From assembly GCF_055900595.2 (NCBI RefSeq), contig NZ_CM148325.1: a DNA stretch of 64,000 nucleotides. One strand, 5' to 3'. The notes beneath the pieces were generated by a model. That model was not told the origin of the DNA. It saw nothing but the letters and a program-made list of their open reading frames with translations, and ran no database searches. The position numbers and the translations under genes are program-made. Shown piece after piece: positions 4,058-56,846 of the stretch (positions are counted from its first letter, which is position 1; every line of letters begins with the position of its first letter).

Positions 4058-4113
4058 AAACGGCGGCAGAGCAGTCACGGAGTAAAACTGATACCGCTAA
4101 ACGTCACCAGAAA
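4058..4113 (-). ncRNA. dicF: DicF small RNA (ftsZ-targeting sRNA of Qin-type prophages)
   Basis: Minus-strand sequence ttttctggtgacgtttagcggtatcagttttactccgtgactgctctgccgccg followed by a T-run; near-identical to DicF as I recall it. Confidence 0.8.
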
Positions 4114-9669: not shown

Positions 9670-9823
9670 TTTTATATTGGCGAGGTGACGTGAGTTAAGT
9701 AGAATTGCTGCGGGTGCTTGAGGCTATCTGCCTCAGGCATGAACACCAACGGCAGATAGAGAAAAGCCCCAGTTAACATTACGCGTCCTGCAAGACGCTT
9801 AACATTAATCTGAGGCCAATTTC

Positions 9824-10036
9824 ATGCTAGACACATGTAGGTTAGCCTCTTACGTGCCGGAAGGCAAGGAGAAGCAGGCTATGAAGCAGCAAAAGGCGAT
9901 GTTAATCGCCCTGATCGTCATCTGTTTAACCGTCATAGTGACGGCACTGGTAACGAGGAAAGACCTCTGCGAGGTACGAATCCGAACCGGCCAGACGGAG
10001 GTCGCTGTCTTCACAGCTTACGAACCTGAGGAGTAA
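9824..10036 (+). CDS. mok: mok-like reading frame overlapping hok
   Basis: 70-aa frame that starts upstream of and reads through hok, as in hok/sok loci. Confidence 0.5.
   Translation: MLDTCRLASYVPEGKEKQAMKQQKAMLIALIVICLTVIVTALVTRKDLCEVRIRTGQTEVAVFTAYEPEE
9881..10036 (+). CDS. hok: Hok/Gef-family type I toxin
   Basis: 51 aa MKQQKAMLIALIVICLTVIVTALVTRKDLCEVRIRTGQTEVAVFTAYEPEE, Hok family (HokD/RelF-like as I recall it). Confidence 0.85.
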   Translation: MKQQKAMLIALIVICLTVIVTALVTRKDLCEVRIRTGQTEVAVFTAYEPEE

Positions 10037-10106
10037 GAGACTAAGCGGGGGAGAAATCCCTCGCCACCTCTGATGAGTCAGGCATCCTCAATGCACCCGC
10101 GCTTAA

Positions 10107-10125
10107 CCCGCTTCGGCGGGTTTTT
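10107..10125 (+). terminator. Rho-independent terminator after hok
   Basis: cccgcttcggcgggttttt. Confidence 0.7.
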
Positions 10126-10140
10126 CTAGCATCTACCTGG

Positions 10141-10170
10141 TTGACAAAGTCGATGTTAAATGGAAATATG
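10141..10170 (+). promoter_or_regulatory. Candidate promoter of the 10203-11959 cassette (TTGACA-N17-AAATAT)
   Basis: Perfect -35 hexamer at 10141-10146, weak -10; a second TTGACA at 10172-10177. Confidence 0.3.
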
Positions 10171-10202
10171 GTTGACACCAAAACAACAAGGATATTACGG
10201 TC

Positions 10203-10817
10203 ATGCAGAATTTATCTCAACAGTTGTTAGAAGCATATGACAAGGAGTGCCGCAAAGAGCTTTCGATCGCGTTAGCACAGGCTTATCTTCATTCGCATAT
10301 GAAGGCAAAAGAGTTTGGTTCTTTTTGGGCTCAAGCACAGTCATATTTGCGCTGGTTTTATGCCGATGCATTGCTTGAGAATGCGGCTAAGCGTGTGGGG
10401 CTGGATTTTGAAGTCGGTAGCAATGCTGCTAAAAATTGTAAACACATTGCGATTCACTCGAACAACTGGAAAATGACGGCACATCATTTATCGGGTAATG
10501 CGCCACTTCCTAAGCAGGCATTGTATAGAGCTGTTTACGCTAATCAAAATTATGAATTGAATTTTGGGGATGAAAATGCCGACTCCCTGGATGGGAGAGC
10601 GTCTGGTGGACATGTTTATATGTTACATGATGGCAGTAATCAGCACTTGTCCAAACTGAATTTAACTGTTCCTTCTTCGGATAATTACGGGATTCTTTAT
10701 ACTGAGTCTTTACCAATTATGACGATGGTAGAAGTTGAAGCAGAAAATGTGGATTCTGAGATTGAAGATAAAATCAAGATTCTTACCGAACAAATAATTA
10801 AATCACAGCAATCATGA
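10203..10817 (+). CDS. Hypothetical protein (204 aa), first gene of a two-gene accessory cassette
   Basis: ORF with AAGGA RBS; no recognisable domain; stop overlaps the start of the next gene (ATGA). Confidence 0.6.
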   Translation: MQNLSQQLLEAYDKECRKELSIALAQAYLHSHMKAKEFGSFWAQAQSYLRWFYADALLENAAKRVGLDFEVGSNAAKNCKHIAIHSNNWKMTAHHLSGNAPLPKQALYRAVYANQNYELNFGDENADSLDGRASGGHVYMLHDGSNQHLSKLNLTVPSSDNYGILYTESLPIMTMVEVEAENVDSEIEDKIKILTEQIIKSQQS

Positions 10818-11959
10818 GCATGAATATCGCACAAACACCATTTACTGATAAATCGTTTAATCCTCGTCGCCTTGAGGAGGCAAGAGAGGCAAAAGGGTTG
10901 ACGATGGCTGAACTTGCCAGAGTGCTCAATATTTCAAGACAAGCTATTTCGTCATTTGAGAAGGGGTTGAAGTCTCCCTCTGCTGATACACTTTCTGCAA
11001 TAGCCAAGGTGTTAGGATTTCCAGAACGATTTTTCTTAGCCTCCAGTGCTTCTCCATCTCTGGAGGGGGCGATTCATTTTAGAAGTCGTTCAACTGCGAC
11101 CAAAAAGGCTCGAGTTACAGGGAAAACACGTGGGCGTTGGGCGGCATTAATATTGGATGAATGTCTAAAATATGCTCAATTACCAGATGTGGTTCTGCCT
11201 GAATTCGATATTATTGATTTTGAGGTTCTGTCTCTATCTGATATTGAGGATATGTCCACCCAATTAAGGCGTTTTTGGGGGTTAGGTGATGGTCCAATAC
11301 TCAATTTAACTAGACTTGTTGAAAATAAAGGAATCGTGGTTTCTCATTTACCTTCTGGTGAGAAAGTTGATGCCTTTTCGTTCTGGCATAATGGGCGGCC
11401 TTTAATTATGTTAGATAGCTCGAAGACGGCTGTTCGCATGCGATTTAGTCTTGCTCATGAACTTGGCCATTTAATTATGCATAGGGCAGTGGAGGATGAC
11501 TACCTGAATGATAAAGAATTATTCGACCTGGTGGAGTTGCAGGCCGATTATTTTGCCTCCAGCTTTTTAATGCCAGCCACCACTTTCGGGCGTGAATTTT
11601 ATAGTCCAAATTTATCAGCGTTAGAACGATTAAAACTACGTTGGATTACATCTATCGGTAGTATTGCCATGAGGAGTCATAGCCTTAAGTTAATCAGCGA
11701 TAATCAGAAAAGCTATATATTTAAGCAATTAGCGCCATTCCATCGTAGGGAGCCGTTAGATGATGCAATCCCAAAAGAAGAGCCTGAGTTACTTAATAAG
11801 TTACTTTTACTTCTTGATAAGCATTCAATCATAAAGGTAACTGAGTTAACTGATATCTTTGCTCTTCCCTTAAATGAGTTATCTGCAATTACACGATTTA
11901 AAGAATCAGATATGATTCATTCTGACAATGTTATTTCATTTACCATAAAACAAAAATAA
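10814..11959 (+). CDS. HTH_XRE - ImmA/IrrE (COG2856, M78-like) zinc metallopeptidase fusion protein
   Basis: N-terminal XRE HTH (LTMAELARVLNISRQAISSFEKG); HEXXH motif HELGHLIMH at 11456-11470 followed by ELQADYFASSFLMP, typical of ImmA/IrrE. Confidence 0.8.
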   Translation: MSMNIAQTPFTDKSFNPRRLEEAREAKGLTMAELARVLNISRQAISSFEKGLKSPSADTLSAIAKVLGFPERFFLASSASPSLEGAIHFRSRSTATKKARVTGKTRGRWAALILDECLKYAQLPDVVLPEFDIIDFEVLSLSDIEDMSTQLRRFWGLGDGPILNLTRLVENKGIVVSHLPSGEKVDAFSFWHNGRPLIMLDSSKTAVRMRFSLAHELGHLIMHRAVEDDYLNDKELFDLVELQADYFASSFLMPATTFGREFYSPNLSALERLKLRWITSIGSIAMRSHSLKLISDNQKSYIFKQLAPFHRREPLDDAIPKEEPELLNKLLLLLDKHSIIKVTELTDIFALPLNELSAITRFKESDMIHSDNVISFTIKQK

Positions 11960-11971
11960 TTCTCATTCATA

Positions 11972-11994
11972 CCCGCCTCGGCGGGTTTTTGTTT
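11972..11994 (+). terminator. Rho-independent terminator after the cassette
   Basis: cccgcctcggcgggtttttgtttt. Confidence 0.7.
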
Positions 11995-12065
11995 TACGTA
12001 TTCTGGTTTACAATCCACAGGCCAGCCTGAACAACTGGCACCTGCTGCGCCAGCAGAGACAACCG

Positions 12066-12344
12066 ATGGCGCACGATACCAAATTACACAATTCTGATGA
12101 TTCTGCCGTCTTTGCCAGCAGGCACGGGCGGCGCTCTCACGCATTTAAATCTGATTGGTACCAGCATCCCCCATGCACTGAAGAACAGGCCGAATGGCTG
12201 ATTCATTCTTACCGCAGGCGCGGGTTCGAGGTTAAGAAAGCTCTCAGTCTCGACTATCGGCACTGGATAATCTCTGTCAGGCTGCCTTATTCCGAACGCC
12301 CACCACGTGCGTCCCGCACTTTCCAGCAACGGATCTGGAGGTAA
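12066..12344 (+). CDS. Hypothetical protein (92 aa), possibly a frame-separated N-terminal piece of the DUF968 gene
   Basis: Protein-like ORF whose 3' end overlaps the DUF968 ORF in another frame. Confidence 0.35.
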   Translation: MAHDTKLHNSDDSAVFASRHGRRSHAFKSDWYQHPPCTEEQAEWLIHSYRRRGFEVKKALSLDYRHWIISVRLPYSERPPRASRTFQQRIWR

Positions 12345-13395
12345 CGTGCGGGTATTACTTAGACCTGTTCTGGTGCCAGAGCTTGGGCTGGTGGTCCTTA
12401 AACTAGGCCGTGAATCCATGCCGGTATTCCACAATACCCGGGTACTGGTGGAGCCGGAACCGAAAAGCATGCGTAATCTGCCGTCCGGGGTCGTTCCTGC
12501 CGTTCGCCAGCCGCTGGTGGAAGACAAAACATTGCTGCCGTTTTTCAGTAACGCACGGGTGATTCGTGCTGCTGGTGGTGCTGGTGCATTGTCTGACTGG
12601 CTGTTGCGCCATATTAAATCCTGCCAGTGGCCGCACGGCGATTATCATCACAGCGAAACCGTCATTCACCGTTATGGTACCGGCGCAATGGTGTTGTGCT
12701 GGCACTGCGACAACCAACTGCGTGACCAGACATCCGAATCACTCGAGCAACTTGCTCATCAAAACCTGTCAGCATGGATGATTGACGTCATCGGTCACGC
12801 AATAAGCGGTACGCAGGAGCGTGAATTATCTCTGGCTGAATTATCCTGGTGGGCGCTCCGCAATCAGGTGGCGGACGCGCTACCGGAAGCGGTATTACGT
12901 CGTTCGCTGGGATTACCAGCGGAAAAAATCTGCTCGGTGTACCGCGAGAGCGACATCGTACCGGGAGAGCAGACCGCCACCAGCATATTGAAACAACGCA
13001 CAAAAAATCTTGCACCGTTGCCTTACGCCCACCAGCAACAAAAACCACCACAGGAAAAGACGGTGGTAAGCATCACCGTTGATCCAGAGTCTCCGGAATC
13101 TTTCATGAAGCTGCCTAAACGTCACCGTTGGGTTAAGGAGAAATACACACGCTGGGTTAAGACACAGCCGTGTGCTTGCTGCGGGATGCCAGCCGACGAT
13201 CCGCATCATCTGATTGGTCACGGGCAGGGCGGAATGGGAACCAAAGCACATGATCTCTTTGTGTTGCCTTTGTGCAGAAAGCATCACGACGAGTTGCATA
13301 CGGATACCGTGGTATTTGAAGAGAAGTATGGCTCCCAACTGGAGCTGATTTTTCGATTTATCGATCGCGCGCTGGCAATTGGTGTGCTGGCCTAA
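12307..13395 (+). CDS. DUF968-family protein with C-terminal HNH-like motif (YdfU-like); start uncertain
   Basis: C-terminal [17 protein letters not shown]...HHDELH zinc-finger/HNH-like motif; located just upstream of Q. Confidence 0.65.
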
Positions 13396-13412
13396 TTTTG
13401 TGGAGTAAGTTG

Positions 13413-13790
13413 ATGCGTGATATTCAGATGGTTCTTGAGCGTTGGGGGGCATGGGCGGCTAATAATCATGAAGATGTGACCTGGTCGTCCATTGCCGCTG
13501 GTTTTAAGGGATTAATTCCTTCAAAAGTAAGATCTCGTCCGCAATGCTGTGACGATGACGCGATGATCATTTGTGAATGTATGGCTCGCCTGAGAAAAAA
13601 CAACAGCGATTTACATGGTTTATTGGTGGACTATTATGTCGGCGGCATGACTTTTATGGCGCTTGCACGTAAGCATGGGCGATCTGATTGTTGGGTTGGC
13701 AGGATGCTCCAGAAAGCTGAGGGCGTAGTGGAGGGCATGCTGATGGTATTGGATCTCCGATTGGAGATGGATGCTGATTGTTCGAAATAA
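13413..13790 (+). CDS. Late antiterminator Q (phage 82/21 QuuD type)
   Basis: [31 protein letters not shown]...[16 protein letters not shown] matches the QuuD-like Q family. Confidence 0.85.
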
Positions 13791-19053: not shown

Positions 19054-19416
19054 ATTAATATTAAATCGGATTATTTTTAGCGCTGAATGTGAAATTTAAA
19101 TAAAAAGGACTCTTCCATGAGTCAAAATCCTTGAAATCTTAAGGGTAAGATAAAAGGTCATTAGACAGAATGACACGTTTTATTAATAAATAAAGCTATT
19201 GTTTCATTCGTGTGTTTTTCTTTACAAAAGTAATCCTTGCTATGGTTGGTTAATCATGCGTTAATGGTGTTCTGGTTTGTTACAAAATTATCTGAAGCAG
19301 TCATTGTTATAATTTTATTATTTGTACCTCTTGAGATTTCCTTGTTGGTTTTTCTCTCTGATATTTTTTTTCGGACCATTCTGCCCAAGGGCTAACTTCT
19401 TCAAAAGGTAATAATG

Positions 19417-19629
19417 ATGTCTAACAAAATGACTGGTTTAGTGAAATGGTTTAACCCTGAAAAAGGTTTTGGTTTCATCACGCCGAAAGATGGTAGCAAA
19501 GATGTGTTTGTCCATTTCTCAGCTATTCAGAGCAACGATTTCAAAACGTTAACTGAGAATCAGGAAGTCGAATTTGGTATTGAGAACGGACCTAAAGGCC
19601 CCGCGGCTGTTCATGTTGTGGCACTTTGA
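19417..19629 (+). CDS. cspI: Cold shock protein (CspI-like)
   Basis: [38 protein letters not shown]... cold-shock domain. Confidence 0.9.
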
Positions 19630-19828
19630 GGTAGATAATATTACAAACCATATTCACTTTAGATGCCCGTGTTGCCATGGTTCTCAGTATAGAACATCAT
19701 CTTTTGATGTTTCTGACAGGAATCCTTTCGGGGCAAAATGTATCTTTTGTAAATCAATGATGATTACATTTGATAATATTTCACAATACTTAAATGTTAG
19801 CCGTCTATCGTTAGATTTAAGAAAGTGA
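19613..19828 (+). CDS. Possible small Cys4 zinc-ribbon protein
   Basis: [10 protein letters not shown]...CIFCKS motif; weak RBS; start overlaps the csp stop. Confidence 0.3.
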
Positions 19829-40623: not shown

Positions 40624-41330
40624 TGCACAGAAAACCCCCAGCTAGGCTGGGGGTTCCGGAAAGCTTTCAGCTTTGAGCCAGTTATTAAAACCCCTTTTGA
40701 TTTGTTAAAACACCTTGCGGTCTGGCAACTGCAAGTGTCAAACAAGAAATCAAAAGGGGGTCCCAATGGGGGACGAAAAGAGCTTAGCGCACACCCGCTG
40801 GAACTGTAAATATCACATAGTTTTTGCGCCGAAATACCGAAGACTGGCGTTTTACGGAGAGAAGCGTAGGGCGATAGGCAGTATTTTGAGAAAGCTGTGT
40901 GAGTGGAAAAGCGTACGGATTCTGGAAGCAGAGTGCTGCGCAGATCATATCCATATGCTTGTGGAAATCCCACCCAAAATGAGCGTATCCGGCTTTATGG
41001 GATATCTGAAAGGGAAAAGCAGTCTGATGCTTTACGAGCAGTTTGGGGATTTGAAATTCAAATACAGAAACAGGGAGTTCTGGTGCCGAGGGTACTATGT
41101 CGATACGGTGGGTAAGAACACGGCGAAGATACAGGACTACATAAAGCACCAGCTTGAAGAGGATAAAATGGGGGAGCAGTTATCGATTCCATATCCGGGC
41201 AGCCCGTTTACGGGCCGTAAGTAACGAAGTTGAATGCAAATGTCAGATCGTATGCGCCTGTTAGGGCGCGGCTGGTAACAGAGCCTTACAGGCGCATTTG
41301 AAAAACCTCCGGCTATGCCGGAGGATATTT
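40621..41330 (+). mobile_element. IS200-family insertion sequence (about 710 bp, boundaries approximate)
   Basis: Left-end hairpin cccccagctaggctggggg, second stem-loop over the RBS, tnpA, right-end hairpin cctccggctatgccggagg. Confidence 0.8.
40766..41224 (+). CDS. tnpA: IS200 transposase TnpA (HUH Y1 transposase)
   Basis: MGDEKSLAHTRWNCKYHIVFAPKYRR...HIHMLVEIPPKMSVS matches IS200 TnpA. Confidence 0.9.
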   Translation: MGDEKSLAHTRWNCKYHIVFAPKYRRLAFYGEKRRAIGSILRKLCEWKSVRILEAECCADHIHMLVEIPPKMSVSGFMGYLKGKSSLMLYEQFGDLKFKYRNREFWCRGYYVDTVGKNTAKIQDYIKHQLEEDKMGEQLSIPYPGSPFTGRK

Positions 41331-56532: not shown

Positions 56533-56577
56533 GCTCCGTTTAACATTCATTGAGAAAACTGATGCTACTGTGTCAAC

Positions 56578-56677
56578 GATCCGTTATCAGTGCAGGAAAA
56601 TGCCTGTTAGCGTAAAAGCAAAACACAAATCTATCCATGCAAGCATTCACCGCCGGTTTACTGGCGGTTTTTTTTCG
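56578..56677 (+). ncRNA. mgrR: Candidate MgrR small RNA (boundaries approximate)
   Basis: Intergenic position between dgcZ and mgtS; ends at intrinsic terminator ccgccggtttactggcggtttttttt. Confidence 0.45.
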
Positions 56678-56750
56678 CCGTCATAAAAATCAGGCCCCTT
56701 GTACACAGTTGTAACAAGGGGCCGGTTAGGTGAGGGATTATCTCCGTTCA

Positions 56751-56846
56751 TTAGTCATCCCATTTGTGGCTGAAATACGCGGCCAGAAAACCAGAAAATA
56801 AAATTATTCCCAGTACGGCCATAAAAACATTCATATTACCCAGCAT
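56751..56846 (-). CDS. mgtS: Small membrane protein MgtS (YneM), 31 aa
   Basis: Minus-strand MLGNMNVFMAVLGIILFSGFLAAYFSHKWDD; not in the ORF track because of size. Confidence 0.8.
   Translation of the reverse strand: MLGNMNVFMAVLGIILFSGFLAAYFSHKWDD

Follow-up and report, generated by a model that had tools for sequence, protein, structure and literature searches.

RosmerTA toxin–antitoxin (TA) systems, in which a Zn-peptidase antitoxin is paired with a toxin of unknown function, were named and shown to act in phage defence by Millman et al. (2022, 10.1101/2022.05.11.491447). Their antitoxin RmrA, an ImmA-type protein that often bears an N-terminal helix-turn-helix (HTH), was later described as a hub antitoxin serving many different toxins (Ernits et al. 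2023). Here we analyze a two-gene cassette, comprising gene 1 (WP_001180546.1) and gene 2 (WP_000062344.1), at positions 10203–11959 of a 64,000-nucleotide stretch of contig NZ_CM148325.1 from the RefSeq assembly GCF_055900595.2, the whole of which is hereinafter called the window. We consider it likely that this cassette is a RosmerTA-type TA moron lodged in a Tritos/Qin-like lambdoid prophage; judged by sequence comparison, it is an uncharacterised RosmerTA whose putative toxin belongs to a subfamily differing in sequence from the validated Rosmer toxins. A preliminary description made from the letters alone had presented it as an undescribed module, a claim that did not survive: both proteins match RmrT/RmrA models of PADLOC, the architecture has been known as a TA since 2015, and the system type, known from studies of 2015 and 2022, is modelled in defence-finding tools.

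Several experimentally studied systems provide the frame for this comparison. The RosmerTA of E. coli OLC-716, the founding member, listed as “Verified” in Table S11 of Millman et al. (2022, 10.1101/2022.05.11.491447), shares with our cassette the arrangement of two co-oriented genes with the toxin first, as well as an HTH plus Zn-peptidase antitoxin of about 370–380 aa; its RmrA, the sequence of which was taken along with that of its toxin from the Millman supplement, displays the same HExxH...E and post-HTH FR motifs as the product of gene 2. Unlike gene 1, its RmrT is a protein of 239 aa that falls under the PADLOC model PDLC03935 and belongs to a different sequence family. The protection of E. 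coli from phages and the failure to delete the antitoxin alone (the delta-rmrA construct could not be transformed) are properties known for OLC-716. In the vmi480/vmi470 pair of Vibrio mimicus MGIVmi1 (Luo et al. 2015, PMC4671572), Vmi480 is lethal when produced alone and is neutralised on co-expression. Here too, the toxin (198 aa) comes first, separated by a 5-bp gap from an HTH+Zn-peptidase antitoxin (362 aa), and the pair has its own promoter; however, Vmi480, which we recovered from the genome collection via its published cloning-primer sequence, is a member of the RmrT subfamily PDLC03929 (2.3e-34) and is dissimilar to the gene 1 family. A pair with the same architecture borne by a prophage of E. 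coli E101 (E101_02645/02644), which is reported to be 33%/42% identical to the Vibrio vmi480/vmi470 pair, makes clpP essential (Rousset et al. 2021). This ClpP dependence is known for E101 alone, and the E101 toxin (WP_001179380.1) probably belongs to the Vmi480 subfamily given the published identity of 33%. Further, a Tn-seq study found rmrA, together with clpX, to be essential in three Pectobacteriaceae. Finally, the RmrTA of the Gordonia phage Kita, which protects E. coli against 2 phages of the BASEL set (Ernits et al. 2023), resembles our cassette in being phage-encoded, in coupling an ImmA-type RmrA to a toxin without a recognised domain and, in E. coli, in the narrowness of its protection; its toxin differs from gene 1 in having predicted transmembrane regions and in depolarising the membrane. 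In the literature searched we found neither a biochemical activity of the toxin nor a trigger reported for any RosmerTA.

The architecture of gene 2 additionally recalls the CapH/CapP (CBASS), ImmR/ImmA (ICEBs1) and DdrO/IrrE (Deinococcus) systems, in which an XRE-type HTH repressor is likewise found alongside an M78 metallopeptidase, the latter cleaving the repressor on a damage signal. There, repressor and peptidase are encoded as distinct proteins and control other genes, whereas in gene 2 they are fused and paired with a putative toxin; neither cleavage nor a signal is reported for any RmrA. An assignment of the cassette to one of these pairs was rejected, since its HTH and peptidase reside in one 381-aa chain.

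The two genes (Table 1), delimited from the six-frame list of open reading frames (ORFs) and the raw sequence, share the tetranucleotide ATGA at 10814–10817, in which the ATG of gene 2 lies over the TGA of gene 1. This overlap, already noted in the preliminary description, is borne out by both sources and suggests that the translation of gene 2 is coupled to that of gene 1. A second in-frame ATG of gene 2 at 10820 accounts for the 379-aa form found in some public annotations. The gene 2 product is an HTH-peptidase fusion: Pfam recovers HTH_3 (aa 20–73, 4.6e-16) and Peptidase_M78 (aa 170–287, 6.3e-18), and the HELGH motif stands at exactly the coordinates first given for it, in agreement with the original recognition of an XRE HTH joined to an ImmA/IrrE-type peptidase; E241 (11534–11536) is the likely third zinc ligand. 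The PADLOC RmrA model PDLC03947 aligns with nearly the entire protein (aa 11–380 on model positions 7–381 of 383, E 5.5e-102), and pairwise comparisons relate it to the RmrA of OLC-716 (31% identity over 354 aa, E 4e-41) and to Vmi470 (35% identity, E 4e-50). On these sequence matches, gene 2 is a clear homologue of validated antitoxins. Its further matches include the PADLOC models for capP (1.5e-21), capH (1.7e-10) and PD-Lambda-2_B (0.002, in the peptidase core), and among structures in the PDB, CapP (7t5t), the Xre-family regulator of ICEBs1 (7t8i), DdrO and IrrE (3dte). The NCBIfam model for the spr1629 antitoxin scores 187 bits on gene 2, below its cut-off of 335.

An alignment of 11 RmrA proteins, whose partner toxins fall into three families, shows the residues H215, E216, H219, H223 and E241 to be invariant. 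We also observed two invariant dipeptides in all 11 proteins, inclusive of those from OLC-716 and Vmi470: FF at the end of the HTH (aa 73–74) and FR some 15 residues further on (F89-R90). The joint conservation of the peptidase residues and these dipeptides argues that peptidase activity is a part of the mechanism; FF and FR could constitute a structural hinge, or alternatively be a site of (self-)cleavage by the peptidase or a pseudo-substrate for it.

In the case of gene 1, the statement that it has no recognisable domain holds for Pfam and NCBIfam, neither of which yields a match (in Pfam this extends to all of 50 family members), but not for defence-system libraries, where it matches four PADLOC RmrT models, with PDLC03933 as the best. 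A profile built from nine close homologues of gene 1 and run against 1.84 billion cluster representatives (50% identity) recovered 78 relatives, nearly all of 195–230 aa; a word-indexed protein search, even when supplied with a profile, reached only close relatives. As the direct match of gene 1 itself is modest, the link to RmrT was tested independently through these relatives, and each of the ten scanned matches PDLC03933, with E-values of up to 3.6e-40 over the full length. Thus, the gene 1 family corresponds to the PADLOC PDLC03933/34/37/40 group, which comprises about 78 clusters at 50% identity.

The coupling of the two genes is strongly conserved. In the ten loci L002–L011 that we retrieved around relatives of gene 1, every one is followed directly by a co-oriented gene for a 374–384-aa HTH+M78 protein that overlaps it or begins at most 10 nt away, and this pairing persists as the toxin identity falls from 73% to 24%. 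Hence, the neighbourhood analysis of gene 1 homologues that had been called for finds the pair kept in ten independent contexts. Divergence has proceeded in step in the two genes (65/70, 73/80 and 44/59% identity for gene 1/gene 2), and the proportion of nonsynonymous differences (pN 0.12–0.40) lies far below that of the saturated synonymous ones (pS 0.75–0.87) in both; on this comparison, both genes are under purifying selection. Nine contexts of the gene 1 subfamily were long enough to be judged, and all nine are phages or mobile islands. More generally, RmrA-like proteins are encoded in 29 deposited genomes of phages, which come from many hosts.

At its site, the cassette (about 10136–11994) is a precise insertion of ~1.87 kb between the hokD terminator and the ydfU-Q block. 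When the segment 10136–11994 was removed in silico, its flanks joined and complete E. coli genomes searched with the product, at least 3,496 of the 5,426 genomes showed the empty site as one contiguous match (~93% identity); the cassette itself is present in 40 genomes. Given how common the empty site is, the cassette is a discrete insertion. At 40%, its G+C content is lower than that of the window (48%). On either side of the insertion stands one copy of an imperfect direct repeat of ~42 nt (10106–10147 and 11971–12013), composed of a terminator hairpin followed by CTGGTT(G/T)ACAA, in which the two hairpins (10106–10125 versus 11971–11990) are identical at 19 of 20 positions; a single copy of this repeat is seen in the empty site upon alignment of the junction with strain SCU-113. 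The presence of the repeat twice around the cassette and once without it fits an exchange in which short homologies recombine at module (terminator/promoter) boundaries, and the sequence suggests that cassettes of this kind are exchanged in this manner. The orthologous cassettes each end in a hairpin directly after the stop codon, with stem sequences that are all different. The earlier claim of intrinsic terminators on both sides therefore stands in so far as a hairpin is present on each side, the right one found by the scan (11971–11986 plus a T-run; -12.1 kcal/mol, z -3.15) and the left one by folding (-13.9 kcal/mol, z -2.43, with a T-run behind it; unflagged by the consensus scan). The left hairpin, however, also occurs in the empty site directly after hokD, and hence is resident sequence outside the cassette rather than its own.

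The upstream boundary of the cassette coincides with a conserved regulatory block. In alignments of the upstream regions, the similarity among divergent cassettes starts abruptly at TGGTTGACA, ~65 nt 5′ of the start codon, and the resulting 65-bp block, with both copies of TGGTTGACA, is conserved among cassettes with otherwise unrelated flanks. Since synonymous sites are saturated at these distances, its conservation implies that the block is functional. The two copies are the only occurrences of this 9-mer in the 64-kb window; the pair is kept at exactly 31-bp spacing in 18 of 29 fetched loci, and repeat 1 is invariant ~65 nt before the start codon in the cassettes of L002, L003, L004, L010 and L026. 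Repeat 1 encompasses a perfect -35 hexamer, TTGACA (10141–10146), and at the position of the candidate -10 orthologous cassettes read TAAAAT or CAAAAT, 16–17 nt after the -35. This layout of promoter and repeats is maintained in cassettes whose toxin identity is as low as 44%, and in part in still more divergent ones. We infer that the block comprises the operon's own sigma-70 promoter along with two candidate sites for the HTH of RmrA. Of the promoter first proposed at 10141–10170, the perfect -35 and the conservation of the block speak in favour, while the -10 is weak, which explains why the consensus scan does not list it. In conjunction with the homology, the pairing in ten independent contexts and the empty site, these features agree with the earlier picture of an accessory moron that is co-translated from its own promoter and ends in its own terminator. 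The same evidence of homology, pairing and empty site supports the suggestion that it is a conflict module whose effector is gene 1 and whose antitoxin or regulator is the HTH-peptidase.

Downstream of the cassette and before the ydfU-Q block we noticed an operator look-alike, TGGTTTACAA, at 12003–12013, which is one base off the putative operator/-35. RmrA might bind this resident TGGTTTACAA element, with an effect on downstream prophage genes.

To obtain a view of the gene 1 product we turned to structure prediction. It is an acidic (pI 5.7) protein, predicted to be soluble and devoid of hydrophobic or transmembrane segments; a membrane-depolarising toxin like the Kita RmrT was accordingly rejected as a model for it. 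AlphaFold2 gave an unusable result with a 9-sequence alignment of close homologues (pLDDT 38.6), and required a 50-sequence alignment to produce a model with pLDDT 87.4 and pTM 0.82. In its topology, a long N-terminal helix leads into two sets of three strands, separated by a helix, and a C-terminal helix closes the chain; the model points to a restriction-endonuclease-like fold. Foldseek searches of AFDB50 with it returned 301 matches at E <= 0.001. Among the best 50 of these, nearly all are “uncharacterized” proteins of 200–230 aa from Firmicutes, Proteobacteria and Planctomycetes, and one is labelled “restriction endonuclease”; such a spread fits, at the level of predicted models, a fold shared among Rosmer toxins, as suggested by Ernits et al. 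No PDB entry matched the gene 1 model below E 0.1 in Foldseek, and the RmrT family likewise drew a blank there in sequence and profile searches. In the 50 family members the conserved residues are Y28, N74, N78, H81, T92, R109, N116, H142 and E181; strands 2/3 carry neither an acidic residue nor a Lys that is conserved. A canonical PD-(D/E)xK restriction nuclease was therefore rejected, the Asp...(Asp/Glu)-x-Lys residues being absent in the family. Going by the model, a nucleic-acid target of gene 1 is plausible.

The region bearing the cassette is 99.9% identical to Escherichia phage Tritos, which is prophage 3 of the adherent-invasive E. coli (AIEC) strain LF82, and 100% identical to several other E. 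coli chromosomes. RefSeq annotates gene 1 as “hypothetical protein” and gene 2 as “helix-turn-helix domain-containing protein”, while the Tritos annotation has “hypothetical protein” and “ImmA/IrrE metallo-endopeptidase”. In the LF82 lysogen both genes are transcribed, gene 1 at 30x and gene 2 at 14x above the prophage background (PMC9928086 Table 1); the same study counts both as morons, with no function given, and reports hokD, immediately upstream, at 3792x background, by far the top-transcribed gene of Tritos (PMC9928086). The Q-like protein in the window (13398–13790) has 130 aa, as in strain Ecol_316, whereas the Q of Tritos has 250 aa (L001, 15310–16062). With cassettes that are 99.9–100% identical despite their differing Q, the carrier prophages are mosaics that differ just downstream.

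Several observations weigh against the assignment of the cassette to RosmerTA and have to be set beside those favouring it. The PADLOC match of gene 1 itself is partial (aa 47–161) and modest (PDLC03933, E 7.5e-10). Neither gene 1 nor its family profile shows similarity to the RmrT of OLC-716 (BLASTP E 2.3; hhalign comparison with a probability of 0.15), nor does its family to Vmi480 (hhalign probability 0.11), such that neither of these experimentally validated RmrT toxins is homologous to gene 1 in BLASTP and hhalign comparisons. Accordingly, its role as toxin rests on position, on conserved pairing and on inclusion in the RmrT model set. RmrT, however, is by definition a collection of sequence-unrelated families, and dissimilarity is therefore no bar to membership. 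A literature search by accessions and locus tags returned only the LF82 moron table, with no experiment on the cassette, and we likewise found no experiment in the literature on any member of the RmrT subfamily of gene 1. As for transcription, read-through of ~1% from hokD could produce the levels seen for the cassette in LF82, and for this reason the RNA-seq values were rejected as proof of an independent promoter.

A further point against comes from PD-lambda-2 of the E. coli pangenome, an abortive-infection defence system in which an Xre-peptidase fusion likewise lies downstream of a toxin-like gene: there, the Xre-peptidase alone is toxic on overexpression and the upstream gene rescues (Vassallo 2022). 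By analogy, the roles in our cassette could be reversed, with the HTH-peptidase as the toxic effector and the 204-aa protein as its inhibitor or sensor, the more so as Ernits et al. call the assignment of toxin and antitoxin uncertain at the edge of the ImmA/Rosmer network. Yet gene 2 has only a marginal match to PD-Lambda-2_B, confined to the peptidase core, as against that to RmrA over nearly its full length; in two closer validated relatives it is the upstream gene that is the toxin and the HTH-peptidase that is the antidote; and PD-lambda-2 is made up of three genes (HigB-like, Xre-peptidase and P4-antitoxin-like), whereas gene 1 has no HigB match and just two genes lie between the promoter and the terminator. 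A reversal of roles thus appears very improbable to us. Improbable in the extreme is a regulatory switch of the ImmR/ImmA, IrrE/DdrO or CapH/CapP kind that would sense damage and control genes of the prophage or its neighbourhood, with gene 1 as a non-toxic accessory. The similarity of gene 2 to the capP and capH models of PADLOC and to CapP, 7t8i, DdrO and IrrE structures would be in keeping with it, as would the TGGTTTACAA look-alike just 3′ of the cassette. However, the host prophage has a CI/Cro switch of its own, ~3,500 prophage sites that are similar in other respects lack the cassette, and in other elements it occupies unrelated positions, including one on the opposite strand inside a head-gene module; a master regulator of the prophage was rejected on account of the CI/Cro switch and of this variable position. 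That gene 1 is the sole constant neighbour of gene 2 points to a self-contained pair rather than to a regulator of the element.

A different question is whether a genuine TA pair of this type serves solely for addiction or stabilisation of the prophage, or is a purely selfish element, without taking part in defence against other phages. The vmi480/vmi470 and E101 pairs were characterised as TA modules alone, the cassette adjoins hok/sok, a classical post-segregational killing locus, and the validated protection is narrow, as with Kita and its 2 BASEL phages. Against this, two RosmerTA systems did protect against phages when tested, and the contexts of the subfamily are phages or mobile islands with insertion points typical of defence morons, namely the immunity region, the nin region and the stx position; moreover, plasmid-style addiction would be of little gain to a chromosomally integrated prophage. 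On these grounds, we deem a module without any defensive function distinctly unlikely.

Under the favoured interpretation as a RosmerTA-type TA moron, validated relatives suggest the following course of events. The gene 1 product would be a growth-arresting toxin that is held in check by the co-translated RmrA; phage infection would upset the balance of RmrT and RmrA, causing infected cells to stop growing before the phage cycle is completed, which would amount to an abortive-infection-type defence that shields the lysogen population. From the anatomy of the operon, the HTH of RmrA may bind the two TGGTTGACA sites, over the -35 and the transcription start, resulting in autorepression. Given that RmrA resembles a repressor-protease fusion, akin to CapH-CapP in one chain, the peptidase may be the signal-responsive element, and by analogy with CapP, ImmA and IrrE it may inactivate RmrA itself or process RmrT. 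Being predicted to be soluble and restriction-endonuclease-like, RmrT would probably act on nucleic acid rather than on the membrane, and if the model is right it may do so via the non-canonical residues N74, N78, H81, T92, R109, H142 and E181. A more elaborate scenario, which we offer as a speculation and hold to be unlikely in its entirety, is that RmrT is an effector with the restriction-endonuclease fold in which D...(D/E)xK has been replaced by a constellation of Asn, His, Thr and Arg, either as a new catalytic or as a purely binding variant, that poisons host or phage nucleic acid, with RmrA as a sensor sitting on paired TGGTTGACA operators and inactivating itself on a phage-derived signal.

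Table 1. Positions of the cassette, its parts and other features in the window
Feature	Position (strand)	Remarks
rmrT-like gene (gene 1), WP_001180546.1	10203..10817 (+)	putative toxin, 204 aa
rmrA-like gene (gene 2), WP_000062344.1	10814..11959 (+)	putative antitoxin and autoregulator, 381 aa
HTH of gene 2	10865-11032	aa 18-73
M78 peptidase of gene 2	11321-11674	aa 170-287; C-terminal region beyond without assigned domain
HELGH motif of gene 2	11456..11470 (+)	aa 215-219; zinc-binding/catalytic (H215, E216, H219)
Hairpin terminator after hokD, ACCCGCTTCGGCGGGTTTTT	about 10105-10125 (+)	left copy of flanking direct repeat; boundary marker
Repeat 1, TGGTTGACA, with -35	10138..10146 (+)	candidate RmrA operator; left end of conserved cassette
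Candidate -10, AAATAT	10164..10169 (+)	3/6 consensus matches; 17 nt after -35
Repeat 2, TGGTTGACA	10169..10177 (+)	31 bp after repeat 1; abuts -10 and covers expected transcription start; candidate second operator
Intrinsic terminator of the cassette, ACCCGCCTCGGCGGGTTTTT	11971..11990 (+)	right copy of flanking direct repeat
Resident CTGGTTTACAA element	12003..12013 (+)	one base off CTGGTTGACAA at 10137-10147
sok RNA	9712-9886	Rfam, 115.8 bits; left of cassette
hok/mok (hokD)	9824-10036	ORF; left of cassette
DUF968/HNH ydfU-like gene	12307-13395	right of cassette
Q	13398-13790	right of cassette
DicF small RNA	4061-4112 (-)	Rfam, above gathering score
cspA-type thermoregulator	19259-19675 (+)	Rfam, above gathering score
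STnc490	40633-40756 (+)	Rfam, above gathering score
STnc560	56544-56757 (+)	Rfam, above gathering score

The neighbours of the cassette are as first described, with sok/hok to its left and the ydfU-like gene and Q to its right; the former make up a complete hok/sok type I TA locus (9712–10036) directly upstream. Elsewhere in the window, DicF adjoins dicB in the Tritos annotation, the cspA-type thermoregulator precedes a prophage cold-shock gene, and STnc490 and STnc560 are Hfq-binding small RNAs.

The sites of the cassette in other phages vary, and comprise the interval that separates cI from N, the nin region, a position following Q and three tRNA genes, one beside a tRNA-Gly island with an integrase and one in a head-gene module. 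In Yersinia-type lambdoid prophages (L002, 6001–7757, and L003), the cassette lies between the genes for N and the cI repressor, where lambda carries rexAB. In E. coli 2013C-3181 (L009, 3931–5687), a 55%-identical cassette is located 3′ of Q, a DNA methyltransferase gene and the three tRNA genes, i.e., at the position of stx in Stx phages, where it adjoins genes for TerB-family and IraM proteins; the start of its antitoxin is placed 90 nt too late in RefSeq, and the 383-aa ORF overlaps the toxin stop codon by 1 nt. A 38%-identical cassette (L011, 8001–9732) is inserted on the opposite strand between the genes for the large terminase and the prohead protease, which is unusual for a moron.

In practical terms, WP_001180546.1 and WP_000062344.1 can be renamed as a RosmerTA pair, i.e., an RmrT-like toxin and an RmrA antitoxin. 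To what was known of such systems, the present analysis adds a precise empty site, a conserved promoter with a candidate operator and a nuclease-like toxin model that lacks the canonical catalytic residues. Together with the solubility of the putative toxin, its short list of conserved residues and the natural isogenic empty sites, these are assets that the subfamily offers, and as a well-delimited, lysogen-expressed cassette of E. coli it would provide a convenient model for studying the toxin activity and the trigger of RosmerTA systems. With the cassette present, protease genes (clpP, for example) could become conditionally essential, as with the related E101 pair. Finally, being expressed in the LF82 lysogen, the pair may shape the phage range of such AIEC strains, which is of relevance to phage therapy directed against them.

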